Shown in pieces: positions 39,615-60,272 of a stretch of 64,000 nt of DNA. The position numbers and the translations under genes were made by a program. Under the pieces are notes generated by a model that was given only the letters and a program-made list of their open reading frames with translations, was not told the DNA's origin and did not search any database. How positions within the stretch are numbered: position 1 is the stretch's first letter; each line of letters starts with the position of its first letter. This stretch comes from Escherichia phage vB_EcoM_G5211. The stretch is from sequence record MK327947.1; one strand, given 5' to 3'.

Positions 39615-39652
39615 TTTGTATACTGTATTTATTGCATACGGAGATTTTTACT

Positions 39653-40384
39653 ATGGCTAAAAGATTTCATTATGTTTATGAGATAAAGAATCTTGTAAAC
39701 GGCAAGCTGTATATAGGTAAACATTCTACTAACAATATGCATGATGGATATATGGGGTCTGGTGACCTTCTTCGTGCTGCATTTGAAAAATATGGCATTG
39801 AGAACTTCGAGAAGCGCATATTAAAAATGTTTGATACCGAGCAGGATGCTTACCTATACGAGAAAGAACTTGTCACTGTTGACATTGTAAAAGATCCCAA
39901 TTATTATAATGTAGTTACTGGCGGTCGTTATGACGGAGACCAGGTATACTCAGACTCTGTACGCGCTAAAATGTCTTCTTCTGCCAAAGAGCGCGTAGAA
40001 CGTGATATGAAAACTGGAAAACTAAAAAAAGCAATAGTAGGTATGCGAGAGAGTGTTTCCGGTAGCTCATGGTATAATGACGGTGTTAAATCTATACGAG
40101 TTCGAGATGGAGAAACTCCACCTGACGGATTCGTCAAGGGTAATTTACATGCTGGGTGGGACCATATAGAATGGACGGAGGAACGCAAAGCCGCTAACAG
40201 GGAAATATGTCTAAGACAAGTCCAAAAGGATCGTGAGTCCGGTGCTCTCGCCGAGCGTGTAGCAAGGCTTAACGATTTTCATACTGGCAGTAAGTGGTAT
40301 AACAACGGGGTAGTTAATAAGGTCGTGAAACGCGGTGACACCCCTCCTGATGGTTTTGTTCTTGGAAAACTTGTTAAAAGGTGA
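39653..40384 (+). CDS. Seg-type GIY-YIG homing endonuclease (SegE-like position)
   Basis: GIY-YIG core HYVYEIKNLVNGKLYIGKHS...YMGSG...EKYG; repeated WYNxGVxxxxVxxGxTPPDGFV modules; between hoc/inh and uvsW as T4 segE. Confidence 0.8.
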   Translation: MAKRFHYVYEIKNLVNGKLYIGKHSTNNMHDGYMGSGDLLRAAFEKYGIENFEKRILKMFDTEQDAYLYEKELVTVDIVKDPNYYNVVTGGRYDGDQVYSDSVRAKMSSSAKERVERDMKTGKLKKAIVGMRESVSGSSWYNDGVKSIRVRDGETPPDGFVKGNLHAGWDHIEWTEERKAANREICLRQVQKDRESGALAERVARLNDFHTGSKWYNNGVVNKVVKRGDTPPDGFVLGKLVKR

Positions 40385-40388
40385 TGTG

Positions 40389-41891
40389 ATGCAAGATATT
40401 CATGTGCATTTTATGAATTATAGTTTTGTTAAAATTGAATGTTCTGATTCAATATCTATGGAATTACGAGACTATTTTTCTTTTGAGATTGAAGGTGCAA
40501 GATTTAATCCTCGTTATCGCTACGGGCAATGGGATGGGCGAATCCGGCTATTTACCTATGAAAACACTCTTCCTATCGGACTGATCAAAACTTTGGGTAT
40601 CTTTGCTAAGAATATGAGCTATTCTGTTTGGATTGATCCCCGTCTTCTGGAAAAGGAGAAAATCACTAAAGAAGATATTGATAGTTGGATCGGTTCGTTG
40701 GCGATATATTCTGGCGCTAATAAGATCACCCCTCATTGGTATCAAAGTGAAGCTGTATTTCAGGGTATACATAATCGTCGTAGAATGTTAGTTTTGCCTA
40801 CTTCTGCTGGTAAAAGTTTGATTGCTTGTTTATTATCTCGATGGTATCTGGAAAACTACGAGGGAAAGGTACTAATCATCGTTCCAACTACTTCTCTTGT
40901 TCTCCAGATGCGTGATGACTTTATTGATTATAGGCTATTCCCTTTTGAGGCTATCCATACAATGATGAGTGGTAGCCAAAAACATCCAGGGGAACGATTG
41001 ATAACTGTTTCAACTTGGCAATCTGCGTGTAAGATGCCTAAAGAGTGGTTCCAGCAATACGGAATGGTTATTGTCGATGAATGTCACAAAGCAACCGCCA
41101 AAAACCTTCAAAATATTGTAAATGATATGACTCATTGCCAATTTAAGATTGGTATGACTGGTTCACCTCGTGACGGTAAGTGTAATGCTTTACAATATGT
41201 TGGATTATTTGGCGATATATCTAGGATCGTAAGTATTGATCGTCTTATGGATGAAGGACAAGTTACAAAACTGAAAATTAACTGTCTATTCCTAAAATAT
41301 ACTGACGATGAATGTACGTCGATTAAGGGGAAAGAATACGCGGAAGAGATCAAATATATAACTTCACACGGTAGACGGAATAAGTTTGTGTGTAATTTGG
41401 CACTAAAACTAGCTAAGAAGGGCGAAAACGTATTCCTGATGTTCCGCAATACTAAGCACGGAAAACTTATGTATGACGCGTTACAGAAGGTACACGACAA
41501 GGTTTATTATATTGACGGTGGAGTTAAGACAGAAGAACGTGATGAATTTAAGAAATTAGCGGAAGGGGAAACAGGGATCATTTGTGTTGCTTCCTATGGT
41601 GTTTTCTCTACTGGTGTTTCAATTAAGAATTTGCACCATGTTATTTTCGGTCATCCCGTGAAGGAATCAACTATCGTTCGTCAGAGTATCGGTCGTGCAT
41701 TGCGTAAACATGGTTCTAAGGATATTGCAACGGTCTGGGATCTTATAGATCATCTGGCGGTGAAGACAAAGAGCAATAATGCTAAGAAACAGTTTAGCCA
41801 CCTTAATTATGCTCTTAAACATGCGCTTGAAAGAATAAAAATTTACAACACCGATCGATTCGAATATGTCACGAAAACAATCGAGATTTAA
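40389..41891 (+). CDS. uvsW: UvsW DNA/RNA helicase
   Basis: N-terminus and core parallel T4 UvsW (HWYQ...RRRMLVLPTSAGKS, DECH box, VASYGVFSTG...KNLHHV); ATG 40389. Confidence 0.9.
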   Translation: MQDIHVHFMNYSFVKIECSDSISMELRDYFSFEIEGARFNPRYRYGQWDGRIRLFTYENTLPIGLIKTLGIFAKNMSYSVWIDPRLLEKEKITKEDIDSWIGSLAIYSGANKITPHWYQSEAVFQGIHNRRRMLVLPTSAGKSLIACLLSRWYLENYEGKVLIIVPTTSLVLQMRDDFIDYRLFPFEAIHTMMSGSQKHPGERLITVSTWQSACKMPKEWFQQYGMVIVDECHKATAKNLQNIVNDMTHCQFKIGMTGSPRDGKCNALQYVGLFGDISRIVSIDRLMDEGQVTKLKINCLFLKYTDDECTSIKGKEYAEEIKYITSHGRRNKFVCNLALKLAKKGENVFLMFRNTKHGKLMYDALQKVHDKVYYIDGGVKTEERDEFKKLAEGETGIICVASYGVFSTGVSIKNLHHVIFGHPVKESTIVRQSIGRALRKHGSKDIATVWDLIDHLAVKTKSNNAKKQFSHLNYALKHALERIKIYNTDRFEYVTKTIEI

Positions 41892-41896
41892 TAAAT

Positions 41897-41920
41897 AGGG
41901 GCTTTAATGCCCCTTTATTC
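41897..41920 (+). terminator. Rho-independent terminator after uvsW
   Basis: Hairpin aggggc-tttaat-gcccct followed by T-rich tract. Confidence 0.6.
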
Positions 41921-41934
41921 TACGGAGATTAAAA

Positions 41935-42171
41935 ATGATTAGCTTTAAACGTTTTTTGGTTGAGGCCGCTATTGACGGTTTCATGCGTAAGATTTATTCT
42001 TGTAATACTATCGAGGGATTAAATGAACTTGAGGCATATTATGAGAAGCGCAAGAAAGAAACAGAATTGAAACCTGCTGATGATATTTCGATCCGTGATG
42101 CCATCGCTGGACGCCGTAAGCAATTGGAAGCGGACAACGAGCCAGAAGAGGAGCCGGAAGAGGATTTTTAA
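41935..42171 (+). CDS. UvsW.1-like small protein
   Basis: 78 aa ORF directly downstream of uvsW as in T4; acidic C-terminus. Confidence 0.5.
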   Translation: MISFKRFLVEAAIDGFMRKIYSCNTIEGLNELEAYYEKRKKETELKPADDISIRDAIAGRRKQLEADNEPEEEPEEDF

Positions 42172-42175
42172 GATA

Positions 42176-42201
42176 TAAAAAAGCCCCATCAATGATGGGG
42201 C
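42176..42201 (-). terminator. Rho-independent terminator (minus strand)
   Basis: A-run + hairpin gccccatc-aat-gatggggc; resembles the hairpin at 369-385. Confidence 0.55.
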
Positions 42202-42234
42202 AAAATAAACCAATTAAAATCGGTTATCAACAAA

Positions 42235-42411
42235 TTACATTAACAGCATTGTTTGCTCTACGAGTTGTTCTTGTTCTTCGCCGTTCGCATCTTCACTAAT
42301 CGAACGTTCTGTTACTAGCTGTAAGCAGTAGCCAGTGTGAACAACGCCGTTTTCTGTCTGGACGGATAACGCATCCTCGACAGGTTGTTTACAACAAATA
42401 CAGATTTTCAT
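42235..42411 (-). CDS. Small Cys-containing hypothetical protein (58 aa) upstream of uvsY
   Basis: ORF MKICICCKQP...; below the ORF-track cutoff; position like T4 uvsY.-2. Confidence 0.35.
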   Translation of the reverse strand: MKICICCKQPVEDALSVQTENGVVHTGYCLQLVTERSISEDANGEEQEQLVEQTMLLM

Positions 42412-42432
42412 AAAAATTCCTCCTGCATGTAT

Positions 42433-42840
42433 TTAGCGACCAGATTCCAGCATACGCAATTCTATAGCATTCTTGATCGCAAATCCACGAGATTTAACGA
42501 TATCAAGTGCGCGACCAGCGAAATCCATTACCATCTGGTAATATGCAATTTTCGTATCAAGCGGTAAGATCTCGTCGTCTGCTGCCATGACAACTTTCAA
42601 TTCTGATTTCTCATATTCAGCACGACACCAGTCATCACTACGGTTAGTGTAAAAGTCAAGACGATTTTTCATAGCCTTTTTCTTTTTAGCCTCAAGAGCA
42701 ATCGTCTCTCTTTTCGCCTCGCTGTAAATCCTTAACCACTTTGAGTATACTACCGGATTATTCAGCGCCTCCCATTGCAACTTAGTCGCATCGATCTTCA
42801 TGTCAGCTTCTAATTGTTCTTTCAAATCGTTTAGGTCCAT
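42433..42840 (-). CDS. uvsY: UvsY recombination mediator protein
   Basis: 135 aa; sequence parallels T4 UvsY (KLQWEA.NN...YSKWL...KSRGFAIK). Confidence 0.9.
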   Translation of the reverse strand: MDLNDLKEQLEADMKIDATKLQWEALNNPVVYSKWLRIYSEAKRETIALEAKKKKAMKNRLDFYTNRSDDWCRAEYEKSELKVVMAADDEILPLDTKIAYYQMVMDFAGRALDIVKSRGFAIKNAIELRMLESGR

Positions 42841-42887
42841 AATATCCCCTTATTCACACTAAGACCTATATCATATCACACACAAAA

Positions 42888-43286
42888 TCACTTTGCAAGT
42901 CTTATGCGTAGTTGTTCAAGATCATCTGGGTTATCTATTACTGAAAAGTAGATTGATACTATGATTGAGTTATCGTCGTACTGCGGGGTTACTTCTACTG
43001 TCAGGTTTCGGACCCGTGGTTCATAGTTTCGGATCGCCTCATTGATGTTTTTTGATAAGGTATCCACTGTCAGTGGGTTCATGTTCTCAAACAGTGATTT
43101 ATTGAGATCGCATCCAAACAGTGGATCAAATGGACGAGATCCCTTGCGAGTAGTCACGATCAGTAGAATAGAATCCTTAACCGCTTTAATCCCTATGTTC
43201 TTTTTAACGTCGTTATTCCACGATCTGGATATATTGAGATCCAAATCAGTATACATCTGATTAATAGTTGCCATGTTATACCTCAA
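42888..43286 (-). CDS. 25: gp25 baseplate wedge protein
   Basis: 132 aa, same as T4 gp25; TTRKGSRPFDP...FSVIDNPDD conserved. Confidence 0.9.
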   Translation of the reverse strand: MRYNMATINQMYTDLDLNISRSWNNDVKKNIGIKAVKDSILLIVTTRKGSRPFDPLFGCDLNKSLFENMNPLTVDTLSKNINEAIRNYEPRVRNLTVEVTPQYDDNSIIVSIYFSVIDNPDDLEQLRIRLAK

Positions 43287-43912
43287 AGAATTTTAAGGAA
43301 ACTGGATAGACCTGATAATGAATATACACCAGATTCCCCGCATTCGCACTTGATCGGTACTGCCAGTGTGATTTGATTTCTTGTTAGCTCGTCGATCACT
43401 TCTTCCACTTTATCCGTGGTAAGCATATCCAGCACGCGGTCAAAGTCCTGTGCGTTCAGGTCGTCTATATTGAATTGCTGATCGCCTATCACGATATATT
43501 CGATACATGCAATTACCATCTGCATAATATCAACATCTTCTGTAAACTTAGGTTGACGAAATTTGATTTTTACTTGCCCTAAGTCCAGAATATACGGTTC
43601 AACTTCTGGTATCTGTGTGCGTGAAACATCAAGAGAGTATACTTTCTCTTTATTGCATACACCACACACCCAAGTAGCATCAATTTTCATCTTATTGAGG
43701 CTGTGACACCATAAGAGAAGAAAAATATATTCTGCTTCGCATTTCTCTAGCTCTAATGCATTGATCCCCGTACATTCATGTATGATCTCTATAACAACCT
43801 CTGACAGCTTGCCAGTCTCTTTTGCTGCTACCAGTTTTTGAAATTCGCCGAAGGTGAAAGCACGGGCGTGTATCAACTTTTCGCCTAATTGGATCTTGAA
43901 AAAGTATTGCAT
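43283..43912 (-). CDS. 26: gp26 baseplate hub protein
   Basis: 209 aa (T4 gp26 208 aa); synteny. Confidence 0.75.
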   Translation of the reverse strand: MQYFFKIQLGEKLIHARAFTFGEFQKLVAAKETGKLSEVVIEIIHECTGINALELEKCEAEYIFLLLWCHSLNKMKIDATWVCGVCNKEKVYSLDVSRTQIPEVEPYILDLGQVKIKFRQPKFTEDVDIMQMVIACIEYIVIGDQQFNIDDLNAQDFDRVLDMLTTDKVEEVIDELTRNQITLAVPIKCECGESGVYSLSGLSSFLKIL

Positions 43913-43954
43913 AATAAAACACCCTTTATAAACACATAGAATTATTTAGTATTT

Positions 43955-43962
43955 TATAAATA
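43955..43962 (+). promoter_or_regulatory. T4-type late promoter TATAAATA upstream of gene 51
   Basis: Exact TATAAATA about 21 nt upstream of ATG at 43983. Confidence 0.55.
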
Positions 43963-43982
43963 CCCGAAAGGGGGATTATACC

Positions 43983-44753
43983 ATGAATATTATCAGAATA
44001 AAACTACCGGAAGGTGTGCAGAGATTTAAACCATTCACGGTAAAAGATTATAGAGATTTCCTTCTGGTGTCAACTGAAATTAAGATGAATCCAGAAGAAG
44101 AACAAACGATTCTTGATGAGCTATTAGAAGAAATATATCCAGACGTAGATCCGGCATTTCGTGAATATATTTTCCTGAATGTCTTTACTAGTTCAATTGG
44201 TAAAACTAAAATACCTCTTTGTTTTACTTGCCCGACTTGCAACAAAGAAAGAAAAATGTTGCTTAACTTACAGGTTGAAGCACTAAAACCAATCGTTCTA
44301 GAGGCCGCAGGGCTTAAAATAACTTTCCGGTATGTTAAACCATCAACCGACTATGCAAAAACGTTTCTGGATGCGATAGAGCGTGTATCTGATGGTATTA
44401 ATGATTATCTATGGACTGAATTACCGGAAGAAGTTAGAGAACAGGTTATCGATTCAATCTCATTTGCTGAATTTGAAGAAGTTGTTAAGCAGATGCACAC
44501 AATCAAGATCGAACAAAAGATATCTTGTTGTGAAAGTCATGACCTGAAATACATAGGTCTTCTTCCATTATTCAAATTGTTGTTGAATCCAGATGAGTTA
44601 TTCATCTTTTATCGAATAAACCATCTATTGGCAAAATCAAATTATTCTATCAGTGATCTTATGGATATGTTACCGGTCGAGAGAAACATTGCACTGACAC
44701 TGGTCGAGAAAGACGTAAAAGAGGCAAATAATGCAAAGAACGGGGTTTCCTAA
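43983..44753 (+). CDS. 51: gp51 baseplate hub assembly protein
   Basis: 256 aa (T4 gp51 249 aa); synteny. Confidence 0.7.
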   Translation: MNIIRIKLPEGVQRFKPFTVKDYRDFLLVSTEIKMNPEEEQTILDELLEEIYPDVDPAFREYIFLNVFTSSIGKTKIPLCFTCPTCNKERKMLLNLQVEALKPIVLEAAGLKITFRYVKPSTDYAKTFLDAIERVSDGINDYLWTELPEEVREQVIDSISFAEFEEVVKQMHTIKIEQKISCCESHDLKYIGLLPLFKLLLNPDELFIFYRINHLLAKSNYSISDLMDMLPVERNIALTLVEKDVKEANNAKNGVS

Positions 44754-45840
44754 TGTCTCAATAAAACTTTATCAGGATTATGAGGCATTTCTAAATCATC
44801 GCTTTATAGAATTGGGTGCTACCTTTGTTACAATGACTCTGCGTGATTCGATTCGTGGGGTGAACGAAGGATTGTTGCAATTCTATGATAATAAGGCGAT
44901 GCATACAAAATTAAACGGGAGAGAGATCATTCAGATTTCGCTATCAACTGCTAATACAGATGAAGTGTTTAACCGAATCTATGGGATCTCTCATAGTAAT
45001 GTAACAATTGACCAAAAATCCGACAACATTTTAACATTCCAGTTAAAGAGCTATCACGAAACACTAAACCTTAAATTTTCCCGCTCATTGACAAATAACG
45101 CTGTTAATAACGTAACTAGCATGATTGATGCCATCTATAAGGAAGTTCCTTTATGGAAACCTACTATAAAGGGTGATAACGTTGTTATTCCTCGTTGTCC
45201 GTGGGTTAGTACCATAAATGACTATATGGATTTTGTGAGGGCATACGGGCAAAGCGTAGAAACAGAGTCTTTCGTGTATTGCTGGGAAGATTTTGATGGT
45301 ATAACGATCGCTGGACACGATACAATATTAAAAAATGAGCCAATACCAGCTATAATCTGTGAGCCTAGACTCATGGGGCAATTTATTGATATGTCGCCTA
45401 ATCTGATGGTTTTTAATTTCGAGTGGAAGACTAAGAGCAATGCTAAAGTTAAAAATTCATTTAGCAATGTGACATACACAACTATTGATTTTGTTACTAA
45501 GCAGTATAATAAAATTATTGTTGGTAATGGGGATAATATTGCACACTTTGCTCATGGTGGCGCTTATGGCGATTTAACTTATAAGAATGCGTTTTTGGAA
45601 GGTTCTAAACTTGCCACAATAGAACAATATGATTCATATGCTACCGCCGTGTGTCACGGTAATTTTTCGTTGCGCCCCGGTATGGTTATTCGATTCTTTG
45701 ATGAGAAGCAACAAGCACGCAATGATTTTATTGTTGACGAAGTGGTGCATGAAATTAGCCGAGAGCAATCATTAACTCACCTGTATATGATCGGTAACAG
45801 CGAAGAATTACAGGAAGTCAAATTTGAAGGTAAGATATAA
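44731..45840 (+). CDS. 27: gp27 baseplate hub protein
   Basis: 369 aa; synteny. Confidence 0.8.
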   Translation: MQRTGFPNVSIKLYQDYEAFLNHRFIELGATFVTMTLRDSIRGVNEGLLQFYDNKAMHTKLNGREIIQISLSTANTDEVFNRIYGISHSNVTIDQKSDNILTFQLKSYHETLNLKFSRSLTNNAVNNVTSMIDAIYKEVPLWKPTIKGDNVVIPRCPWVSTINDYMDFVRAYGQSVETESFVYCWEDFDGITIAGHDTILKNEPIPAIICEPRLMGQFIDMSPNLMVFNFEWKTKSNAKVKNSFSNVTYTTIDFVTKQYNKIIVGNGDNIAHFAHGGAYGDLTYKNAFLEGSKLATIEQYDSYATAVCHGNFSLRPGMVIRFFDEKQQARNDFIVDEVVHEISREQSLTHLYMIGNSEELQEVKFEGKI

Positions 45841-46358
45841 TGACAGAAACTAAACCTATGTTAAAATTTGTTGTTCCTGTAAAAAAATTAGAGATAAACG
45901 GGAAACATATCAAGATCCCAAAAATGGGGATTAAGCAACATCGATTATTAAAAGATGTTCGTAGCTGTGATGAAACATTAAAGATTCTTCTTGATTCAAT
46001 CTGTCCTGGGTTAAACGCTGCCGAGTCTGAATTGGTTATGCTTAACCTTTGTGCGTTTAATGGTAAGTGTCTGGAAGAAAAAGATGGTCTTAAGCTGTCT
46101 GATGTGTATATTTGTACAGAGACTGAATTTACTTTAAATGGTAAAGTCTTTAAATTTAAAAATCCAATGTACACTTCTGACCCCATTATCGATGACGCTG
46201 ATTTCTTGAGTCATCATTATCACGATCCTAGTGTAGACTTCCATGATTTCCCAGCTTTTATTATGGATTGGGCTACAGGATTAAGAAAAACTATTGCGCT
46301 GGATACACCGGAAGGTACTATCTATGGTGGAATTAACATATTGGATCGCCTATCATGA
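45840..46358 (+). CDS. 28: gp28 baseplate hub distal protein
   Basis: 172 aa (T4 gp28 177 aa); synteny. Confidence 0.7.
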   Translation: MTETKPMLKFVVPVKKLEINGKHIKIPKMGIKQHRLLKDVRSCDETLKILLDSICPGLNAAESELVMLNLCAFNGKCLEEKDGLKLSDVYICTETEFTLNGKVFKFKNPMYTSDPIIDDADFLSHHYHDPSVDFHDFPAFIMDWATGLRKTIALDTPEGTIYGGINILDRLS

Positions 46359-48088: not shown

Positions 48089-49146
48089 TGAAAATTAGTG
48101 TTATCAATGATGCCGTTGATAGCTTTAAAGCGGGGGTTAAAACCTCCGCTGGTTTTACCTCAAAAAATAAAGGGAAAACATTAACCGCTCAATTCCCCGC
48201 TGAACGTGCTAGCGGTAATGATGCTAGCGGTTATTATATCAACGACTTATATAATAATGGTCTGTTATTCACTGCATACGATTATACATCTCGTACTACC
48301 GGATCGTTGCGTGATTTCAGGAAAAAGAAAAATGTTGCTAGCGGTTTTGGTGGTAGCGTTAATATCGCTGGTTTTGATTTAAATTTGGGTGGGAGAAATG
48401 CTGCATTTGACCGAGAGGCAATTGCTAATATTCTTCTTCCTCGTAGTCAATCTGACGTTGACGCTGCTAGCCATAAGTTTAATGATGTTGGTGAATCTGT
48501 CATTTCTCGCGGCGGTGGTACTTTAGGCGGTGCTCTTTCTAATATGGCATCTACTGCCGTTTTTGGTGGTATCGAAAGTATTACTGGTGGATACCTTGCC
48601 GACCACGGTGAACAGATTTATAATACTGCGCGAAGCATGTATGCGGGTGCTGACGCACGAACTAAAAACTACGTATGGCATTTAACCCCACGTAGTATTG
48701 AAGACCTTCGCAATATTCTGATCATATACGAAACGTTTTTAGAATTGTCTTATGGATCTAGTGGTATTTCCAGCACCGCAAAAGAATTAAAAGCGGAAGT
48801 TGATGCGTGGTATAAAAATACACTATTGAGAAAATCCACCCCAGAGGAAGCGAAGAGAAATGATACTCTGTTTGAAGGGATCACCGATTTTCTATCAAAC
48901 GCAATTACTGTATCTAACCCGACAATATGGATGATCTCTAACTTCGGTAAGCGTACATCGTTTGAAGGGCGTAGCGATGCATTTGGTCCCGCTCAGATCT
49001 CAAGTGTACGTCTGGACAAGTCGCCTGATGGTAAGTTTAATGGTCTTGCTATTTCTCCTAACTTGCCTAGTACATTTGTTCTGGAAGTATCATTTAGAGA
49101 GATCTTGACACTTTCCCGTGGTACTATATTTGGGAGTGCGGCATAA
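48088..49146 (+). CDS. 48: gp48 baseplate tail-tube junction protein
   Basis: 352 aa (T4 gp48 364 aa); synteny. Confidence 0.8.
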   Translation: MKISVINDAVDSFKAGVKTSAGFTSKNKGKTLTAQFPAERASGNDASGYYINDLYNNGLLFTAYDYTSRTTGSLRDFRKKKNVASGFGGSVNIAGFDLNLGGRNAAFDREAIANILLPRSQSDVDAASHKFNDVGESVISRGGGTLGGALSNMASTAVFGGIESITGGYLADHGEQIYNTARSMYAGADARTKNYVWHLTPRSIEDLRNILIIYETFLELSYGSSGISSTAKELKAEVDAWYKNTLLRKSTPEEAKRNDTLFEGITDFLSNAITVSNPTIWMISNFGKRTSFEGRSDAFGPAQISSVRLDKSPDGKFNGLAISPNLPSTFVLEVSFREILTLSRGTIFGSAA

Positions 49147-50078: not shown

Positions 50079-50087
50079 TAAGCGAAA

Positions 50088-50111
50088 GGCGGGGATTATC
50101 CCCGCCTTTTT
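50088..50111 (+). terminator. Rho-independent terminator after gene 54
   Basis: Hairpin ggcgggg-attat-ccccgcc followed by TTTTT. Confidence 0.7.
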
Positions 50112-51416: not shown

Positions 51417-51494
51417 TTTAAACCTCCCATATAACAGAAAACGGGGCTAGTATAAAACTAGTCCCCGTTTGAGTCAACCATTATTTCTTAAAAA

Positions 51495-53546: not shown

Positions 53547-53587
53547 TTTATATCCTCTAGTTGATAACCTATAAACCTATATTTATG

Positions 53588-53607
53588 AAAAGGGGGCTTA
53601 ACGCCCC
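53588..53607 (-). terminator. Rho-independent terminator (minus strand)
   Basis: A-run + hairpin gggggc-ttaa-cgcccc; identical motif at 57610-57630. Confidence 0.6.
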
Positions 53608-53612
53608 ATTTA

Positions 53613-53825
53613 TTATAATGCACCATCGAGCAATTGCTCTAAGGTGTATCCTGAATAGTCTTTTTCAATCAGGATATATTTTCCTACTCGTTTAATACAA
53701 CCACGCATTTCAACGTATTCTGCGTAGTTGATGGTACGAGTTGTTCCATCTTCCAGTAATGCAGTACCGATTTCGTTAATGCGGTCATAAGTTACGTCGG
53801 TAATGATGATTTCGATGTTAGCCAT
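53613..53825 (-). CDS. Hypothetical early protein (70 aa)
   Basis: RBS aaggag; own promoter cassette upstream. Confidence 0.5.
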   Translation of the reverse strand: MANIEIIITDVTYDRINEIGTALLEDGTTRTINYAEYVEMRGCIKRVGKYILIEKDYSGYTLEQLLDGAL

Positions 53826-53861
53826 TTGATACTCCTTAGTAGTTCGTTTCGGTATGGGTGT

Positions 53862-53890
53862 ATTATGATATACACCCTCTGTTATGTCAA
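53862..53890 (-). promoter_or_regulatory. Early promoter cassette (TTGACA, 17 nt, CATAAT) on minus strand
   Basis: One of nine near-identical cassettes: -35, -10, conserved leader with RBS. Confidence 0.65.
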
Positions 53891-53896
53891 CAACTT

Positions 53897-54076
53897 TTAG
53901 AACATTTTTGAAATTAATTCTGCTTTGATTTCGCAGAGAACATCTAAAGATTTCTCGTCACCCGCTTTTGCTGCTTCTGCTTGCATTTTTGAAATGGCTT
54001 CAATGTCAGTGCAATTATAAGCCGCTTGAACTTTAGCGATTGCGATGATTGCCGATTCGATGGTTAAGTGTTTCAT
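53897..54076 (-). CDS. Hypothetical early protein (59 aa)
   Basis: ORF MKHLTIESAI... with RBS ggagaatc and promoter; below ORF-track cutoff. Confidence 0.4.
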   Translation of the reverse strand: MKHLTIESAIIAIAKVQAAYNCTDIEAISKMQAEAAKAGDEKSLDVLCEIKAELISKMF

Positions 54077-54108
54077 GTTTGATTCTCCTTTCGTTTCGGT
54101 ATGTGTGC

Positions 54109-54138
54109 ATTATAGGGGATCTCCGACCCCCCTGTCAA
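54109..54138 (-). promoter_or_regulatory. Early promoter cassette (TTGACA, 18 nt, TATAAT) with GATC palindrome in spacer
   Basis: tgtcaa at 54133-54138, attata at 54109-54114; spacer ggggatctccgacccccc. Confidence 0.65.
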
Positions 54139-54145
54139 CAACTTT

Positions 54146-54664
54146 TTAGTTATTTTTTAATTGCTCATCTTGCAATAGGGCAATCACATGCTGGCGATGT
54201 TCTTCCGATTGAGGAACACCGAAAAAGTTTGTTTTGTAGAAATACTCTAATCGGTCTTCTCGTGTGCTCTCTTCCATCATGATCGCGGGTAGTCCGAGAT
54301 TTCGGAAACGTCGCTTTTCTGCTGGCGTAAAATCACTGTAATACAACATAGAATCATCATTACCAGCAATGCTAAACTCATCATTCATGAAGGAGAATAT
54401 TGCGTTTAAACGCTGTTTACCGTCCACGATTTCGATCTCATAGCGAGAGCCATCATCAATCTTAGCCATTGCGATAGCACCAACCGGAAAATCATTAATC
54501 AGGTTTTCGATAAACATACGTTTGTTTTCGGTGTCCCATACCAAAGGACGCTGATAATCTGGGTTCATGTTGATATAGCCATCTTCTAACCATGCATCAT
54601 AAACAGAGATGACAAAGTTTTTAGTATTGGTATAGTAACGGCGTTTAGGCGTTAAACGGTTCAT
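54146..54664 (-). CDS. DUF262 / ParB-like nuclease-domain protein (DGQQR-type motif)
   Basis: PDYQRPLVWD and IVDGKQRLNAI motifs; ATG at 54664 immediately follows upstream stop (alternative start 54700); about 172 aa. Confidence 0.6.
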   Translation of the reverse strand: MNRLTPKRRYYTNTKNFVISVYDAWLEDGYINMNPDYQRPLVWDTENKRMFIENLINDFPVGAIAMAKIDDGSRYEIEIVDGKQRLNAIFSFMNDEFSIAGNDDSMLYYSDFTPAEKRRFRNLGLPAIMMEESTREDRLEYFYKTNFFGVPQSEEHRQHVIALLQDEQLKNN

Positions 54665-54665
54665 G

Positions 54666-54995
54666 TTATAGTCTCCTGAATGGATCATCACGTAAATCAA
54701 TATCTTTTAAGAACTCATCCCATGAATGGCGGATATTGTTCTTAATTCTCCAGATAAGCGCAGGGATTGAACGCTCTCCCATCTGGAAGTAAGGATCATA
54801 TGATCCGTATGCCCAATATGCTACTACAATTCCACAGTCAGCGCAATAGTATTCTATTTCACTTGCTGGCGACCAAAGTCCATCAATATGATCAGTGATC
54901 TTGCTTTCGATGTTATGACTATGACAATCAGGGCAACGGATGCAATGACCTTGTTTATCGTAATTTGACGTTAGAGAATACTTAAACAATCTCAT
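54666..54995 (-). CDS. Cys-rich zinc-ribbon protein (109 aa)
   Basis: CIRCPDC and CADCG Cys pairs; start overlaps upstream stop (TAATG). Confidence 0.5.
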   Translation of the reverse strand: MRLFKYSLTSNYDKQGHCIRCPDCHSHNIESKITDHIDGLWSPASEIEYYCADCGIVVAYWAYGSYDPYFQMGERSIPALIWRIKNNIRHSWDEFLKDIDLRDDPFRRL

Positions 54996-55711
54996 TATAG
55001 ATCCTTATTGGCTTCAAATACTGCCTTTGCGAATCCTCGCGGGGTAAGTGACCTGATAGTCTTTGTTCTGGTTCCTTTCCCGCCTAGCTTAGAATGCTGT
55101 TTACTGTACCCTTTATTAATCTGCAACGGTTTCTTTTCTGGCATTATAAAGCCTTGTCCGGTCCATAAGCAAGTCTTTTTCGGGTACATATCACGGGCGG
55201 CAATATACTCAGGAAACGTAGGATGCTTATCATCTTCCGGCAAATAACCGCCATATTCCCACGGATGGAACATGTAATCAGGCTTACGCCACATACTAGA
55301 GATAACGCTTACAGGATTCTCTATCATGTAGGGAACTCCTAGCCATTCACCCAAATAAGCGGTTATTTTAGCTGTCCGTACATCATGAACTTGAATCAAT
55401 GGTCCTTGTTCTCGTTTCTTTCGTTCAAAGTGTGCAGCGCCACTAACAGCTAAATTGGTGCACGGTGGGAATGCAAAGATAATATCCGGTTTCCCCCATT
55501 CAAGGTCCATTGCTCTTTCCAGCCAGTTCAAATCAATCCAGGTGTTTACATAAGTAATGTTTGGATGTTCAAATCTGGTATTATACTTTTTGTATGTACC
55601 GTGGTCGGCGTCATCCGCATTAAAGCAGACTACCTTATGACCTGCTTTAGCCCATTCTAGCCCCATTATCCCCGATCCGTCAAAGTTGCAGAATATTAAT
55701 TTTTGTTTCAT
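54995..55711 (-). CDS. Compact DNA cytosine-5 methyltransferase-like protein
   Basis: Motif I-like FDGSGIMG, motif IV PC (FAFPPCTN), motif VI-like IENPV, C-terminal RSLTPRGFAKAV; 238 aa, short for a canonical C5-MTase. Confidence 0.5.
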   Translation of the reverse strand: MKQKLIFCNFDGSGIMGLEWAKAGHKVVCFNADDADHGTYKKYNTRFEHPNITYVNTWIDLNWLERAMDLEWGKPDIIFAFPPCTNLAVSGAAHFERKKREQGPLIQVHDVRTAKITAYLGEWLGVPYMIENPVSVISSMWRKPDYMFHPWEYGGYLPEDDKHPTFPEYIAARDMYPKKTCLWTGQGFIMPEKKPLQINKGYSKQHSKLGGKGTRTKTIRSLTPRGFAKAVFEANKDL

Positions 55712-55949
55712 ATACCACCCTTTAACCCAGCACAGATTTTAGTCGGTTCTTTACCGTGCCACATTAAGTAAAGTCCGTTAATGCGACCTTGTTTTGTGTG
55801 TGATTCTTTTCTAATCTTCTTATAGTGTCGTGCTTCCTCAACTTATTGTTTAGAATACCAATCATAAAGGAAGAGGCACAAAGGCCAACCATTAGCGGCC
55901 TTAATGCAGTTATTAAGAAATTCCTTATTGCGTTTAATTAATTTTCTTT

Positions 55950-56201
55950 TCACGCTACCCCCATTGGTTTGATAGTAACAGAATCTAAAAGACCTTTGTT
56001 AGCCAGTTCGCGGCAAGTTTTCAGATCCGCAACTTCCCAGCCAGCCGCAATCAGGTTATCAATCAGGCTGTTAGCAACTTCTTCGCTCATGAAAGAGCAC
56101 TGTTTGCCGATGGTGTAGCGCACACGCTGTAATTTCAGTTTACGGAAGCCTTTAACGTTCAGGTCTTTAGCGATTTTCTTTGCGGTTTCGATGTTAGCCA
56201 T
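55950..56201 (-). CDS. Hypothetical early protein (83 aa)
   Basis: ORF with promoter cassette upstream. Confidence 0.5.
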   Translation of the reverse strand: MANIETAKKIAKDLNVKGFRKLKLQRVRYTIGKQCSFMSEEVANSLIDNLIAAGWEVADLKTCRELANKGLLDSVTIKPMGVA

Positions 56202-56241
56202 TGTTTGATTCTCCTAAGTGGTATCTCGTCTTGATGGTTGT

Positions 56242-56270
56242 ATTGTAGGGGAGTTATCCTCCCCTGTCAA
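56242..56270 (-). promoter_or_regulatory. Early promoter cassette (TTGACA, 17 nt, TACAAT) with palindromic spacer
   Basis: Spacer ggggagttatcctcccc is an inverted repeat. Confidence 0.6.
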
Positions 56271-56284
56271 CACTTTTTATAAAA

Positions 56285-56452
56285 TTATTTGTTAATTTCT
56301 GGTGCGTTGCTAGGATAGTAACCTTCTTTAACTCCGAGGTATTTCGCAACCATCCCTACAATCTTCTGTGCTACTACAATGTCAAATTTCAGATAATCTT
56401 CGCCGTGGGTTTCAATGATATATGCTTCACATGCTGCTTTAGTCTCGAACAT
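56285..56452 (-). CDS. Small protein (55 aa), paralog of 59551-59718
   Basis: MFETKAACEAYIIETHGEDYLKFDIVVAQK...; 48/55 residues identical to the second copy. Confidence 0.55.
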   Translation of the reverse strand: MFETKAACEAYIIETHGEDYLKFDIVVAQKIVGMVAKYLGVKEGYYPSNAPEINK

Positions 56453-56485
56453 TTTGATTCTCCTATTTCGTTTCGGTATGTGTGT

Positions 56486-56514
56486 AGTATAGGGGATCTC
56501 CCGATCCCCGTCAA
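56486..56514 (-). promoter_or_regulatory. Early promoter cassette (TTGACG, 17 nt, TATACT) with GATC palindrome
   Basis: Spacer gggatcgggagatcccc; conserved leader and RBS. Confidence 0.6.
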
Positions 56515-56528
56515 CAACTTTTTTAAAA

Positions 56529-56810
56529 TTATTCGTGATTAGTTTCGATATTGTGCATTTTGCACCAGTTCAGCCAATCGCCCAGATCTTTATAGTTGAT
56601 GCTTTTATCTGCTGCCATCGTTTTTGTCTTGATACCCATATGTGCGTTATGAGTAAGCATTTTTACAGTGAACTCAATTTTATCGCCTTTAGCTTTAACA
56701 TCAACCAGTTTGGTCCACTGGCTACCAGCGCCGCGAATGTTCATACCAACGATGTTTCCGATGTATGCTTCTTTGTTTTTCAGGATTTCGGTTGCTTTGA
56801 TGAATTTCAT
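56529..56810 (-). CDS. Hypothetical early protein (93 aa)
   Basis: ORF with promoter cassette upstream. Confidence 0.5.
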   Translation of the reverse strand: MKFIKATEILKNKEAYIGNIVGMNIRGAGSQWTKLVDVKAKGDKIEFTVKMLTHNAHMGIKTKTMAADKSINYKDLGDWLNWCKMHNIETNHE

Positions 56811-56843
56811 TTTTGATTCTCCAGTTCGTTTCGGTATGGGTGT

Positions 56844-56872
56844 ATTATGCTATGTTCTTACTTTGGTGTCAA
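56844..56872 (-). promoter_or_regulatory. Early promoter cassette (TTGACA, 17 nt, CATAAT)
   Basis: tgtcaa 56867-56872 and attatg 56844-56849 on plus strand. Confidence 0.65.
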
Positions 56873-56880
56873 CAACTTTT

Positions 56881-57150
56881 TTAGATATTTTCAGAAATAA
56901 ATTTTAAAACTTGACGTAAATGTTTCTCATCTTTGATAGTCGCCGGAAGTTCTTCTTTTACTTCCTGTGCAAGATAGATATTTCCGTTCCAAGTGAAAGA
57001 TCCGTCTTTGTTTACGCGATAGCTGAACATCCACTCGCAATCATTTTCGATTTCATATACACACAGAAGGGTGTAATCGTTAAAGCTATTGATTTCAAGG
57101 TCGAAGCCGTGACGTTTTGCAAAGTTGGTAGTGGTTTTAGTCAGTGCCAT
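56881..57150 (-). CDS. Hypothetical early protein (89 aa)
   Basis: ORF with promoter cassette upstream. Confidence 0.5.
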   Translation of the reverse strand: MALTKTTTNFAKRHGFDLEINSFNDYTLLCVYEIENDCEWMFSYRVNKDGSFTWNGNIYLAQEVKEELPATIKDEKHLRQVLKFISENI

Positions 57151-57190
57151 TGTTTGATTCTCCTAAGTGGTATCTCGTTTCGATGGGTGT

Positions 57191-57219
57191 ATTATGCTAT
57201 AGGCTAGATCAGGTGTCAA
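57191..57219 (-). promoter_or_regulatory. Early promoter cassette (TTGACA, 17 nt, CATAAT)
   Basis: tgtcaa 57214-57219 and attatg 57191-57196. Confidence 0.65.
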
Positions 57220-57242
57220 CAACTTTTTTAATTTTTTGGAAA

Positions 57243-57270
57243 TAAAAAAAGCCGACACTAAGGTCGGCTA
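57243..57270 (-). terminator. Rho-independent terminator (minus strand)
   Basis: A7 + hairpin gccgac-actaag-gtcggc. Confidence 0.6.
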
Positions 57271-57276
57271 ATAAAA

Positions 57277-57585
57277 TCATTTAGACAAATAATCATTCTG
57301 TGCAATCCGGTCGGCGTATGCTGGTGTTATGTCAATCGCCAGCACTTTAACGCGTGCTTTCTTGCGACCTGTGTTTTCTCGTAACCAGTGCTCATGACCG
57401 TGAACATTTTTATACTGCGATGCTTCTTCGAAGGTACGGATCGGACCTGGATAATCTGCGTAAAGGATCTCTAGGTCTTCGGTGATGTAAAAATATACAT
57501 CATAATTACTGTTCTCTAGTTTAAGCAGAGACTTTCGGAACATTGGGAGATTTTCGCGGGTAAATTCAAAGATATTATCTTTCAT
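57277..57585 (-). CDS. Small protein of the H-x-H-W paralog family (102 aa)
   Basis: YDVYFYITEDLEILYADY...HGHEHW...VKVLAIDI; paralogs at 58005, 58298, 59016. Confidence 0.55.
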   Translation of the reverse strand: MKDNIFEFTRENLPMFRKSLLKLENSNYDVYFYITEDLEILYADYPGPIRTFEEASQYKNVHGHEHWLRENTGRKKARVKVLAIDITPAYADRIAQNDYLSK

Positions 57586-57609
57586 AGTATTATCCTCAAT
57601 AGTTGGATG

Positions 57610-57630
57610 AAAAGGGGGCTTAACGCCCCC
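57610..57630 (-). terminator. Rho-independent terminator (minus strand)
   Basis: A-run + hairpin gggggc-ttaa-cgccccc; same motif as 53588. Confidence 0.6.
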
Positions 57631-57635
57631 ATATA

Positions 57636-57923
57636 TTAAAACAGACCTTCCTGTACACCGTAGTAGAGTTCATCGCTGATAATTTCATTAATGCGACGGT
57701 GTGCATATTCCTGATTTGCGAAGTTGTCAGCAAGTTCTACTTTAGTTTCGCCGTCATGAGTCCATTTAGTGATAACTTTACCATCTGCAAATTTGAAGTT
57801 GAACTCTTTAGCTACCGCATCGCGTACCAGACGTGCAAACTTATTGTTGCGGATTGCATTGTCGGTTTCGTGTGCAGCGTGAGCGAATTTGTTAACTTTC
57901 AGAGTGATAGTAATGTATGCCAT
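57636..57923 (-). CDS. Hypothetical early protein (95 aa)
   Basis: ORF with promoter cassette upstream and terminator downstream. Confidence 0.5.
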   Translation of the reverse strand: MAYITITLKVNKFAHAAHETDNAIRNNKFARLVRDAVAKEFNFKFADGKVITKWTHDGETKVELADNFANQEYAHRRINEIISDELYYGVQEGLF

Positions 57924-57969
57924 AATTTGATTCTCCTAGTTAGAAAGTGTATCTCGTTTCGATGGGTGT

Positions 57970-57998
57970 ATTATGCTATACACCCAACCTCATGTCAA
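57970..57998 (-). promoter_or_regulatory. Early promoter cassette (TTGACA, 17 nt, CATAAT)
   Basis: tgtcaa 57993-57998 and attatg 57970-57975. Confidence 0.65.
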
Positions 57999-58004
57999 CA
58001 CTTT

Positions 58005-58283
58005 TTATAAAATAATTTTTTGATATTTTTCTATGATGTTCGTGTAATTCACATCAACCGCTAGCACCGTTGCTTCGAATCCACCGTTTAGCCAATGGCT
58101 ATGATCGTGATCGTGAAAGAAACCTAGACCAGTACGAAGACCTTCTTTATATTCGGCGCGTACATTTAGATCATCATCGATAAACAGATAAAACCATGAA
58201 TTTTTACTAGGATTGATGATACAACCTTTCAGATTCGGGAGAATATCACGACTAAGAATAAACTTATCACCTACTTTGAACAT
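58005..58283 (-). CDS. Small protein of the H-x-H-W paralog family (92 aa)
   Basis: SWFYLFIDDDLNVRAEY...HDHDHSHW...TVLAVDV. Confidence 0.55.
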   Translation of the reverse strand: MFKVGDKFILSRDILPNLKGCIINPSKNSWFYLFIDDDLNVRAEYKEGLRTGLGFFHDHDHSHWLNGGFEATVLAVDVNYTNIIEKYQKIIL

Positions 58284-58297
58284 AATATTTTCCTCAC

Positions 58298-58606
58298 TTA
58301 TAAAGTTTGACCGTTGTTTTTCGCATAATGCTTAATGCGTGCTTGATCTGCTTCCGCTGGTGATAGATTCCATGCAACCACTACAACTTCTGACGCATCG
58401 TCATCCGTTTCTGATACCCAATGGTTGTGATTCATACAGTTATTTGCTATCGAGTGAGCAAATGATTTCATCACTGGAGACGTATAATCATAGTAACGGA
58501 TTTTCAGATTTTCATCAACATACAAGTAGATCGTATAAGGTTTATATTCAGTAACCAGTAACAGACAGTTACGCAATTCTGGGAAAATCTTTTTAGTTAA
58601 TTTCAT
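58298..58606 (-). CDS. Small protein of the H-x-H-W paralog family (102 aa from ATG 58606)
   Basis: YTIYLYVDENLKIRYYDY...NHNHW...VVVVAWNL; ATG 58606 with RBS gagga, 1 nt after upstream stop. Confidence 0.5.
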   Translation of the reverse strand: MKLTKKIFPELRNCLLLVTEYKPYTIYLYVDENLKIRYYDYTSPVMKSFAHSIANNCMNHNHWVSETDDDASEVVVVAWNLSPAEADQARIKHYAKNNGQTL

Positions 58607-58607
58607 T

Positions 58608-58817
58608 TTATAATCCTCGGTCGCGGCTATAGTACACGGTACGCCATACAATTTCATGTTTCGTGTCGCTCCAGCACACGATCTCATTTACTCTTAAATC
58701 TTTGTTATCAACAAAAGATGAACATTGTGACGCTTCTTTCATCATTTTATCTGCTGTTTTCTCATCAAATACAGCACAGATTTCTTTATACACTCGATAA
58801 TCTTTAAACTTGCTCAT
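58608..58817 (-). CDS. Small protein, MSKFKDY family copy B (69 aa)
   Basis: MSKFKDYRVYKEICAVFDEKTADKMMKEASQC...; paralog of adjacent copy. Confidence 0.45.
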   Translation of the reverse strand: MSKFKDYRVYKEICAVFDEKTADKMMKEASQCSSFVDNKDLRVNEIVCWSDTKHEIVWRTVYYSRDRGL

Positions 58818-58819
58818 AA

Positions 58820-59035
58820 TTAACACCAATCAAGAGTTTTTGAGAAAACCTCTATCCATTGTTGAGTATATGCGGTTTCTTTCCATGATACAATACCAGT
58901 AGAATAATGGTTTTTGTTTCCAGAAAATGACGGGCATTTTGATGCATCTTCCATCATCTTTTCGGCGAACTCTGGTTCGTATACTCGCAAGATCTGTTGA
59001 TATGCTTTATAATCTTTAAATTTGCTCATAATCAT
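58820..59035 (-). CDS. Small protein, MSKFKDY family copy A (71 aa)
   Basis: MIMSKFKDYKAYQQILRVYEPEFAEKMMEDASKC...; tandem to copy B. Confidence 0.45.
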   Translation of the reverse strand: MIMSKFKDYKAYQQILRVYEPEFAEKMMEDASKCPSFSGNKNHYSTGIVSWKETAYTQQWIEVFSKTLDWC

Positions 59036-59294
59036 TCACTACCTTATCAGCTTCTTTTGTTGTTTTTACATCAACTGCGATAACCCGTAAAGGTTCGTCA
59101 TGGTTCCACCAATGATCGTGAATATCGGCTTGTGATTTATCACCAAAGGAATCACGAATATCATTTTTACTTTTATAGCTAATGTGACCGTCATAGTCAA
59201 CATAAAGGTAATTATCGAAAATCGGCGTTTTTAAGATCATGCCGAAAAATCTTTCTTTGTGTGTCTTATCCAGCGTTGCAGTAATTCGCATCAT
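59016..59294 (-). CDS. Small protein of the H-x-H-W paralog family (92 aa)
   Basis: NYLYVDYDGHISYKSKND...HDHWW...RVIAVDV. Confidence 0.55.
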   Translation of the reverse strand: MMRITATLDKTHKERFFGMILKTPIFDNYLYVDYDGHISYKSKNDIRDSFGDKSQADIHDHWWNHDEPLRVIAVDVKTTKEADKVVNDYEQI

Positions 59295-59306
59295 AATATA
59301 TTCCTC

Positions 59307-59486
59307 TTAGAAAGGGATGGTCATTTCTTGAGCTTGTACATTCTCGTTAGGATTAAACTTCATCCAACCAATATTGTCTACCAGCATATGCACATTTTTA
59401 TCATATCCTACGTGAGTAGTCAACACTAAATGTGATTTACCTTCAACGATGATTTCCATGTACTTCTGAACTTCGATAGCTTTCAT
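59307..59486 (-). CDS. Hypothetical early protein (59 aa)
   Basis: ORF MKAIEVQKYMEII... with RBS ggagaatc; below ORF-track cutoff. Confidence 0.4.
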   Translation of the reverse strand: MKAIEVQKYMEIIVEGKSHLVLTTHVGYDKNVHMLVDNIGWMKFNPNENVQAQEMTIPF

Positions 59487-59518
59487 TTTGATTCTCCGTT
59501 TGTTGTCTTGATGGGAGT

Positions 59519-59547
59519 ATCTTACTACTCCCTTTAATCATTGTCAA
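59519..59547 (-). promoter_or_regulatory. Early promoter cassette (TTGACA, 17 nt, TAAGAT)
   Basis: tgtcaa 59542-59547; weaker -10. Confidence 0.45.
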
Positions 59548-59550
59548 CTA

Positions 59551-59718
59551 TTATTTGTTAATTTCTGGTGCGTTGCTTGGATAGTAACCTTCTTTAACAC
59601 CCAGATATTTTGCAACCATTCCGGTGATCTTCTGTGCTACTACGATATCGAATTTCAGGTAGTCTTCACCGTGTTTTGCTACAATGTATGCTTCGCATTC
59701 TGCTTTAGTCTGGAACAT
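59551..59718 (-). CDS. Small protein (55 aa), paralog of 56285-56452
   Basis: MFQTKAECEAYIVAKHGEDYLKFDIVVAQK...; own promoter. Confidence 0.55.
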   Translation of the reverse strand: MFQTKAECEAYIVAKHGEDYLKFDIVVAQKITGMVAKYLGVKEGYYPSNAPEINK

Positions 59719-59752
59719 TTTTGATTCTCCTATATCTCGTTGGTATGTGTGT

Positions 59753-59782
59753 ATTATAGGGGATCTCCCGATCCCCTGTCAA
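59753..59782 (-). promoter_or_regulatory. Early promoter cassette (TTGACA, 18 nt, TATAAT) with GATC palindrome
   Basis: Spacer ggggatctcccgatcccc, identical to the 56492-56508 spacer core. Confidence 0.65.
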
Positions 59783-59795
59783 CAACTTTTTTGAA

Positions 59796-60272
59796 TTATT
59801 TTTCTTGATGCTCGCGCTCGTACTTTTCGAAATAAAATTCTACTGGCTGGTCATGAATTGACAGCAAGCCAAAGCGTTTAGCCGCTCGCAATCCCATATT
59901 GCGCTGAATGTACTTCTGGAAGTTCTCGCGTATACACTTACGCCAGTATTCTAAGCCCATACAGCTTTTATAAAGATTGCATTGTACACACGCCGGATTC
60001 ATGTTATCAAGTATATCATGTTCCGGTTTATGCATTCCTACAACCTTATACTTCCACGACCCATCATCATTACGGGCAATTCGTCCATTTTCATCATAGA
60101 CTACCTTTGAGCGTCGCAATACTGGTTTGATATGGTCTGCGTGCCAGCGATCCCCTAGTTCCTCGCCACAATAGGCACAACGCCCACCGTATTTCATTTT
60201 CAGGATCTGGCGTTGCTCTTTCTTTGACAATTTTTTAGGTTTAGGGGCTTTCGCCCCTTCATTATCACACAT
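59796..60272 (-). CDS. HNH endonuclease (possible homing endonuclease)
   Basis: CAYCGE...HADHIKPV...N...CVQCN: Cys pair-HNH-Cys pair architecture; 158 aa; overlaps ligase stop. Confidence 0.7.
   Translation of the reverse strand: MCDNEGAKAPKPKKLSKKEQRQILKMKYGGRCAYCGEELGDRWHADHIKPVLRRSKVVYDENGRIARNDDGSWKYKVVGMHKPEHDILDNMNPACVQCNLYKSCMGLEYWRKCIRENFQKYIQRNMGLRAAKRFGLLSIHDQPVEFYFEKYEREHQEK

Follow-up and report, generated by a model that had tools for sequence, protein, structure and literature searches.

A 64,000-nucleotide stretch of the genome of Escherichia phage vB_EcoM_G5211 (MK327947.1; hereafter the window) carries two small endonuclease-like genes, one between inh and uvsW and one abutting the DNA ligase gene, which a first-pass annotation had taken for free-standing homing endonucleases. 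We conclude, with a probability of about 0.7, that they are two distinct things: a mobile homing endonuclease of the SegE family, encoded by the seg gene at 39653–40384 on the plus strand, and a fixed resident HNH nuclease, encoded at 59796–60272 on the minus strand. Judged by its sequence, the former has the appearance of a genuinely mobile homing endonuclease, akin to T4 SegE, and is accompanied by 1 kb of foreign uvsW, whereas the latter appears devoid of mobile-element behavior. The homing claim therefore held for Seg, a SegE homolog that is intact and linked to the foreign uvsW tract, but not for the HNH gene, which is under purifying selection and lacks a DNA-binding module; the presence/absence comparison proposed with the annotation found seg polymorphic (3 of 58 records) and the HNH gene fixed (58 of 58).

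The window belongs to a Krischvirus (RB49-like, Straboviridae) phage. Megablast of 2–25-kb pieces returned ~58 records, all from Krischvirus coliphages, with FL20 the closest at 97.3% identity. Gene order near both genes is RB49-like, running through hoc, inh, uvsW, uvsW.1, uvsY, 25, 26, 51, 27–29, 48, 54, and alt; a long run of small open reading frames (ORFs), the hyperplastic region, follows alt and leads to the HNH gene, ligase, and 30.3, again as in RB49. Both genes already carry database labels, “homing endonuclease” for seg in the GenBank records of AV108, FL20, and PTE-Eco09 and “HNH endonuclease” for the RefSeq entry of the HNH homolog RB49p212. Our literature search found no paper characterizing the Seg or HNH protein and none pairing Krischvirus with an HNH endonuclease, and the papers on Krischvirus and homing endonucleases say nothing specific. 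A PDB sequence search gave nothing usable for either protein (best E 0.19 for HNH and 0.15, a spurious match, for Seg), and an NCBIfam search gave sub-threshold matches only. Neither the Seg nor the HNH finding alters the current understanding of such systems.

The seg gene and its cassette

The seg ORF (39653–40384, stop included) begins with ATG, is preceded by GGAG 10 nt upstream, and encodes a 243-amino-acid (aa) protein with an N-terminal catalytic domain and two W-Y-x-N-G...P-D-G-F-V modules, much as the first-pass annotation had described a GIY-YIG gene of the Seg type with repeated modules. In Pfam the protein scores 32.6 bits for SegE_GIY-YIG and 26.4 bits for GIY-YIG, above the respective gathering cutoffs of 25 and 22.6, and it reaches 127 bits against PHROG 314, “homing endonuclease.” BLASTP aligns it to T4 SegE over residues 5–243 at 38% identity (E 4e-54), both C-terminal modules included; module 1 (residues 139–163, SWYNDGVKSIRVRDGETPPDGFVKG) and module 2 (residues 213–238, KWYNNGVVNKVVKRGDTPPDGFVLG) align to the two equivalent modules of SegE. 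Residues Y20, G22, D31, Y33, G35, S36, G37, K46, Y47, G48, N86, G90, and G91, which are invariant across 30 family members, are all retained. The gene is free-standing, oriented as uvsW, and lies between inh (38852–39580, minus strand) and uvsW (40389–41891, plus strand). That this is the interval of T4 segE, as had been claimed, is borne out by an identical order and orientation of inh, segE, and uvsW in T4, where the segE stop lies 2 nt before uvsW, compared with 4 nt here. Because the homology is full-length, the family-invariant residues are kept, and the T4 arrangement is reproduced, we assign the seg product, found where T4 has SegE, to the SegE family. It is a new member of that family with a clear natural homing-like footprint, and it shows the family in the inh/uvsW slot of two phage genera.

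Alignment of the window with RB49, Phi1, JSE, AV108, PTE-Eco09, and FL20 delimits a seg cassette of 754 bp (39635–40388, plus strand) that stands in place of 16 bp (AGTGAGGCTATTCGCT) of the RB49-type inh–uvsW spacer, which measures 70 bp in the seg-less RB49, Phi1, and JSE. A match to the T4-type late-promoter consensus, TATAAATA, lies 39 nt ahead of the seg start codon, in the conserved part of this spacer (39607–39614, plus strand), and is positioned upstream of uvsW in seg-less phages; it is a match to the consensus only, and such matches are not enriched across the window (10 found versus 6.3 expected). Within the seg coding region, a sigma-70-like promoter sequence upstream of uvsW (39879–39907, plus strand; TTGACA, 17 nt, TATTAT; 11/12) is likewise only a consensus match, not above the shuffle expectation. 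T4 segE has been reported to hold embedded promoters for its downstream gene.

The distribution of seg is sporadic. It is present in three of the 58 Krischvirus records (AV108, PTE-Eco09, and FL20, at 97.5–99.6% aa identity), and the same protein occurs in the same context at nine metagenomic loci. Next in similarity after the Krischvirus copies come SegE proteins of T4-type phages, at ~38% identity, and a collection of 5.8 billion proteins holds a single Seg cluster at 90% identity, with the next relatives at no more than 46%. The left cassette junction is identical in all copies that keep it, eight of the nine metagenomic loci retaining the left flank. Every copy examined (9/9) is intact, and among six of them pairwise omega, the ratio of nonsynonymous to synonymous substitution rates (dN/dS), is at most 0.27.

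The chimeric uvsW gene and the case for homing

The uvsW helicase gene (40389–41891; Pfam UvsW_N, ResIII, and Helicase_C) is chimeric. Its 5′ two-thirds (40389–41402, plus strand) is a foreign, “X-type” sequence found in seg carriers only: identity to RB49 is 58–78% for ~1 kb and then jumps to 97–99%. Informative sites place the switch to RB49-type sequence between 41402 and 41421, that is, in a crossover interval at 41403–41420 (plus strand) near residue 340, and the UvsW protein is ~79% identical to that of RB49 up to about residue 337 and 99–100% identical thereafter. The X-type 5′ allele is 97.5–97.8% identical among seg carriers and 72–73% identical to its counterpart in every seg-less Krischvirus listed (~55); a search of the phage collection found no sequence closer to it than the carriers' own copies. 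With an omega of 0.03 and synonymous sites saturated, the X-type sequence is a functional allele.

The linkage between seg and the adjacent 1 kb of uvsW is complete: all 13 carriers have both, and the ~55 non-carriers have neither. The right end of the foreign tract, in contrast to this fixed association, varies. It lies inside uvsW in the window and between 42144 and 42176 in FL20, and in AV108 the tract extends ~10.8 kb, up to and including gene 54; in PTE-Eco09 and the longer metagenomic loci, divergence persists to the end of the sequence retrieved. The sister phages thus offer three nested tract lengths, the short ones of the window and FL20 being anchored at seg. A test of whether seg is bound to the X-type block in its full 10.8 kb was negative: Whisky and JK32 have no seg, yet a block 95% identical is present in both. 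The genus has two allelic versions, ~75% identical, of the baseplate-hub block comprising uvsW.1-uvsY-25-26-51-27-28-29-48-54 (AV108 20100–28600), and the minority version is also present in seg-less phages.

Because seg is sporadic, intact, and always linked to a foreign uvsW tract with variable right ends, we interpret the locus as a probable footprint of intron-less homing. By sequence and by analogy, the pattern fits SegE-type homing with co-conversion of the flank, the donor being AV108-like and the recipients RB49-like. For T4 SegE, homing activity has been demonstrated experimentally: the enzyme spreads with nearly 100% efficiency and co-converts its flanks (PMC2330249; PMC2988022), and it cleaves segE-less phages in the hoc.1(inh)–uvsW region (PMC2330249; PMC2988022 Table 1). 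By the same analogy, uvsW or the adjacent spacer is the likely target of Seg. Continuing the analogy, we posit that Seg is made from one or more promoters in the inh–uvsW spacer. During mixed infection, the enzyme would cut a seg-less allele in or near the spacer or at the 5′ end of uvsW, and the break would be repaired from the seg-carrying genome, so that the recipient acquires seg and a uvsW stretch of varying extent. With its diverged uvsW 5′ sequence and interrupted spacer, the carrier would then be immune to its own enzyme.

Two observations weigh against this interpretation. First, a search for seg-linked polymorphism left of the cassette found none, so that co-conversion is visible on one side only; this is expected if the left flank of the donors was already of the RB49 type. 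Second, the seg-less phages Whisky and JK32, whose uvsW is of the RB49 type, have, right of uvsW, an X-like baseplate block that is 95% identical. This region is therefore also reshuffled by ordinary homologous recombination, which could have made the tract junctions without any endonuclease action. In that event seg would be a passive passenger, inactive or uninvolved, that spread together with the uvsW tract by recombination between divergent Krischvirus lineages; the identical left junction in the copies that retain it is compatible with one founding event followed by crossovers. We regard this alternative as unlikely. The intact seg copies are under purifying selection, seg and the neighboring 1 kb have proved inseparable, the short tracts are anchored at seg, and the T4 homolog is active in homing at the same locus (PMC2330249). 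With homing as the preferred explanation, the seg locus is a clean natural example of the residue expected from intron-less homing: a chimeric gene for a helicase of an essential pathway, with a sharp junction and nested tracts.

The HNH gene next to the DNA ligase

The HNH gene (59796–60272, minus strand) encodes a 158-aa homolog of RB49p212 that scores 27 bits against Pfam HNH, where the cutoff is 21.4, and 187 bits against PHROG 2118, “HNH endonuclease.” The motif of paired cysteines around an HNH core that had been noted at first pass is present as C32-x2-C35 ... D46-H47 ... N90 ... C95-x2-C98-N99, residues that are invariant in a 52-member family alignment; strictly, the protein is an H-N-N variant. 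The same alignment reveals a conserved C-terminal region ending in F-Y-F-E, and an AlphaFold2 model has an HNH fold with a confident mean pLDDT (predicted local distance difference test score) of 92.9. On these grounds, the call of a genuine zinc-finger nuclease is sound at the level of sequence and model. Neither Pfam, in which HNH is the sole domain, nor the family alignment or the model contains a recognizable appended module for sequence-specific DNA binding.

The reported overlap with the ligase stop also stands. The HNH ATG (60272–60270) lies inside the last codons of the ATP-dependent DNA ligase gene (gene 30; 60265–61767, minus strand; Pfam DNA_ligase_A_M; RB49p213), giving an 8-nt overlap with GAGG upstream. 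HNH is translationally coupled to ligase and closes the ligase transcription unit, ahead of a terminator/promoter cassette. That cassette (59753–59782, minus strand) is of the promoter(early) stem-loop (PeSL) type, an element class described for RB49 and phi1 (PMC2839356). It consists of TTGACA, the stem-loop GGGGATC-GGGA-GATCCCC, and TATAAT, a 12/12 promoter match; the hairpin (59759–59776; z-score −3.1) occupies the 18-nt spacer of this perfect sigma-70 promoter, which begins 14 nt past the HNH stop and marks the border of the hyperplastic region. The placement of the gene at the edge of that region is confirmed by the variable sequence downstream, where RB49 has ~1.9 kb (121743–123673, ORFs p206–p211) that is absent from the window at 59789–59812. 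Small ORFs in the vicinity are rearranged or duplicated, window segments 56284–56521 and 59550–59801 matching other RB49 positions at 85–86%.

Throughout the Krischvirus clade, HNH is fixed and vertically inherited, and purifying selection on it is strong. All 58 records carry it at the same site with 97.5–100% aa identity, no empty site is known, and its dN/dS within the genus is 0.04–0.06, compared with 0.042 for ligase. The first-pass annotation had stated that conserved core genes would speak against homing, and at least at the genus level this is how the HNH gene behaves. Its association with ligase extends further. A 70%-identical homolog (P0003) is found on two short metagenomic contigs, L015 and L016, next to ligase in both. 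On the longer contig, L015, the C-terminus of ligase (71% aa identity) is followed directly by HNH (70% aa identity), with a TAATG stop/start overlap; beyond HNH, where the window has its PeSL, L015 has an intrinsic terminator and a separate early promoter. The proportion of nonsynonymous differences (pN) from L015 is 0.197 for HNH and 0.188 for ligase, synonymous sites being saturated. Because both genes have diverged equally in L015, with position and overlap kept, the pair must have been co-inherited from far deeper than the genus. The two contigs (Logan SRR8048111 and SRR8048117) represent a Krischvirus-like lineage with ~70% protein identity to all isolates; both the X-type uvsW and seg could have come from it.

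Outside this clade, ligase matches in isolate genomes all fall below 60% identity, the best among the matches listed being 44.8%, and this gap to the next ligase relatives (best 45% among those listed) is unfilled by isolate genomes. HNH homologs in non-Krischvirus isolates reach at most 44% identity among the matches listed, and metagenomic ones reach 51%. They come from genomes of ~12–80 kb, where they usually belong to replication or early (nin-like) modules, with one located near terminase; none of the 40 non-Krischvirus matches listed is in a T4-sized genome. Among the neighbors of 80 IMG/VR homologs, there was no association with ligase, terminase, polymerase, or helicase genes; the only clustered neighbors were small ORFs resembling those of nin regions. 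Hundreds of unrelated phages, with the gene in differing contexts, preserve the 135-aa architecture in full.

Most simply, the Krischvirus ancestor captured HNH once, and selection has retained it since. We propose that the gene was taken once from the pool of small HNH genes in siphophage or prophage replication and early modules and that its product, which is not currently homing, now has a part in DNA metabolism of the phage itself, where it most likely acts as a nickase or structure-directed nuclease of low sequence specificity. We rank such a resident role first. Three considerations weigh against it: conservation demonstrates selection but not for what; HNH-less relatives may exist unsampled; and earlier literature counts an “other HNH” as a putative homing endonuclease (PMC2993671). 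Petrov et al. listed two putative homing endonuclease genes in RB49, one HNH-AP2 and one “other HNH,” a seg-like gene and an “other HNH” in phi1, and two “other HNH” genes in JSE (PMC2993671), and in all three phages the “other HNH” is most likely the ligase-side gene.

If that label were taken at face value, Seg and HNH would both be active free-standing homing endonucleases, HNH having swept to fixation while still homing into unsampled HNH-less relatives. An intact catalytic motif and a location beside a conserved gene and on the edge of the hyperplastic region, where such elements are typically found, are in keeping with this view, but we consider it quite improbable. Presence in every record with no known empty site, an omega of ~0.05 equal to that of ligase, divergence in step with ligase down to 70% aa identity, and a compact architecture that lacks a site-specific DNA-binding module and recurs in unrelated phages all argue otherwise. 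The evolution of HNH is not decoupled from that of its neighbor, as would be the case for an element of the Mob/I-HmuI type.

Very little probability attaches to the idea that HNH assists terminase in packaging, as an accessory nuclease of the HK97 gp74/GVE2 type: the terminase genes (~22.9–25.2 kb, by RB49 synteny) lie ~35 kb away, most homologs belong to replication or nin-like early modules, and T4-type phages perform headful packaging with the nuclease of terminase itself. A role as terminase helper was accordingly rejected on location and on the usual neighbors of the family, and a substitute for T4 endonuclease VII (gp49) was rejected since RB49 has its own gene 49. The longest shot is that the domesticated HNH and DNA ligase form a cut-and-seal pair, HNH nicking, for example, the GGGG...CCCC stem-loops of PeSLs so that mini-circles of ORFans could be excised from and inserted into the hyperplastic region just downstream; its observed basis is a conserved nuclease-ligase gene pair with a PeSL right after it in the window, and Arbiol et al. 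left open whether a dedicated protein recognizes these stem-loops (PMC2839356). Returning to the resident role, we note that HNH behaves as a lineage-specific core gene tied to ligase, and it illustrates an annotation hazard: if every HNH or GIY-YIG ORF is counted as a homing endonuclease, the mobile load is overstated.

Mobile load and comparison with known systems

Four endonuclease-like genes had been counted in the window, and all four are there. Comparison of the whole window with RB49 reveals three insertions of 560–750 bp, each containing an endonuclease-like ORF. Besides seg, these are a sporadic HNH_3 gene (4675–5238, plus strand), which has a sub-threshold AP2 match and is flanked by gene 5.1 and the PAAR gene, and a sporadic Seg-like gene between genes 13 and 14 (20602–21246, plus strand; PHROG 314, 125 bits). 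RB49 lacks the former at this site and lacks the latter. The HNH_3 gene occurs in six of ~58 Krischvirus records, the G37-3 copy being 100% identical; RB49 has a related HNH-AP2 gene elsewhere, RB49p040, next to gene 47. The Seg-like gene occurs in two of ~58 (G37-3, 100%; Brandy, 98.9%). It has no passing Pfam GIY-YIG match, only a sub-threshold match to the I-TevI DNA-binding domain, and divergence of its flanks extends no more than ~100 bp to either side. Three of the four genes (in ~3, 6, and 2 of 58 records) are therefore sporadic and one, the ligase-side HNH, is fixed. Because three of four are sporadic in the genus, some mobile-endonuclease traffic in the lineage is supported. By T4 standards, and contrary to the earlier assertion, the load is not high: four genes in 64 kb compare with 15 homing endonuclease genes in the 169 kb of T4 (PMC2988022).

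Mosaicism in the genus is not confined to these loci. The 3′ part of the fibritin gene (wac; window 18500–19600) is 56–82% identical to RB49, next to a gene 13 that is 95–99% identical, and is a separate mosaic patch. The large terminase gene (terL) of AV108 has an insertion of ~990 bp relative to RB49 (L027 987–1976) that is not in the window; it is annotated within one 2817-nt coding sequence and may be an intein or another in-frame element.

Among known systems, the ligase-side protein most resembles the small phage HNH class (Cas9-HNH/McrA/Gme/GVE2, PHROG 2118). It shares with this class the C-x2-C...D-H...N...C-x2-C-N core of a zinc-finger beta-beta-alpha-metal fold, a size of ~135–160 aa, and a conserved C-terminal helical region ending in F-Y-F-E, and it differs in belonging to a T4-type genome and in following directly after DNA ligase. 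No characterized member of the PHROG 2118 class is close enough for a transfer of function (best PDB sequence, E 0.19). With the HNH homing endonucleases of the T4 Mob/I-HmuI type, it has in common an HNH-type motif and a location at an intergenic border in a phage genome, but it has no appended DNA-binding module, is not sporadic, and is under strong purifying selection. It is the HNH_3 gene at 4675–5238, with its sub-threshold AP2 match, that fits the Mob/I-HmuI class. T4 has a GIY-YIG gene, segC, in the 5.1/5.3 interval that matches the site of this HNH_3 gene, and different nuclease families therefore use the same region.

The closest parallels for seg are in T4. In homing by SegF and SegG with co-conversion (localized marker exclusion), a free-standing endonuclease gene takes along part of the conserved gene beside it, and the length transferred varies (PMC2988022). 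Here, too, tract ends vary between putative recipients, as seen in natural genomes and in the right-hand tract. Compared with SegE itself, the window protein is 38 aa longer, owing to longer linkers, and just 38% identical; it belongs to a different genus, and the flank linked to its gene is a foreign uvsW allele of 73% identity. RB49 DNA, unlike that of T4, contains unmodified cytosine. Yet the two proteins share the N-terminal motifs YVYE, YIGKHS, GY-GSG, KYG, YYN, and GG and a pair of W/Y-x-N-G...P-[DE]-G-F modules, and their genes, each placed between inh and uvsW, are sporadic among their relatives in both groups of phages.

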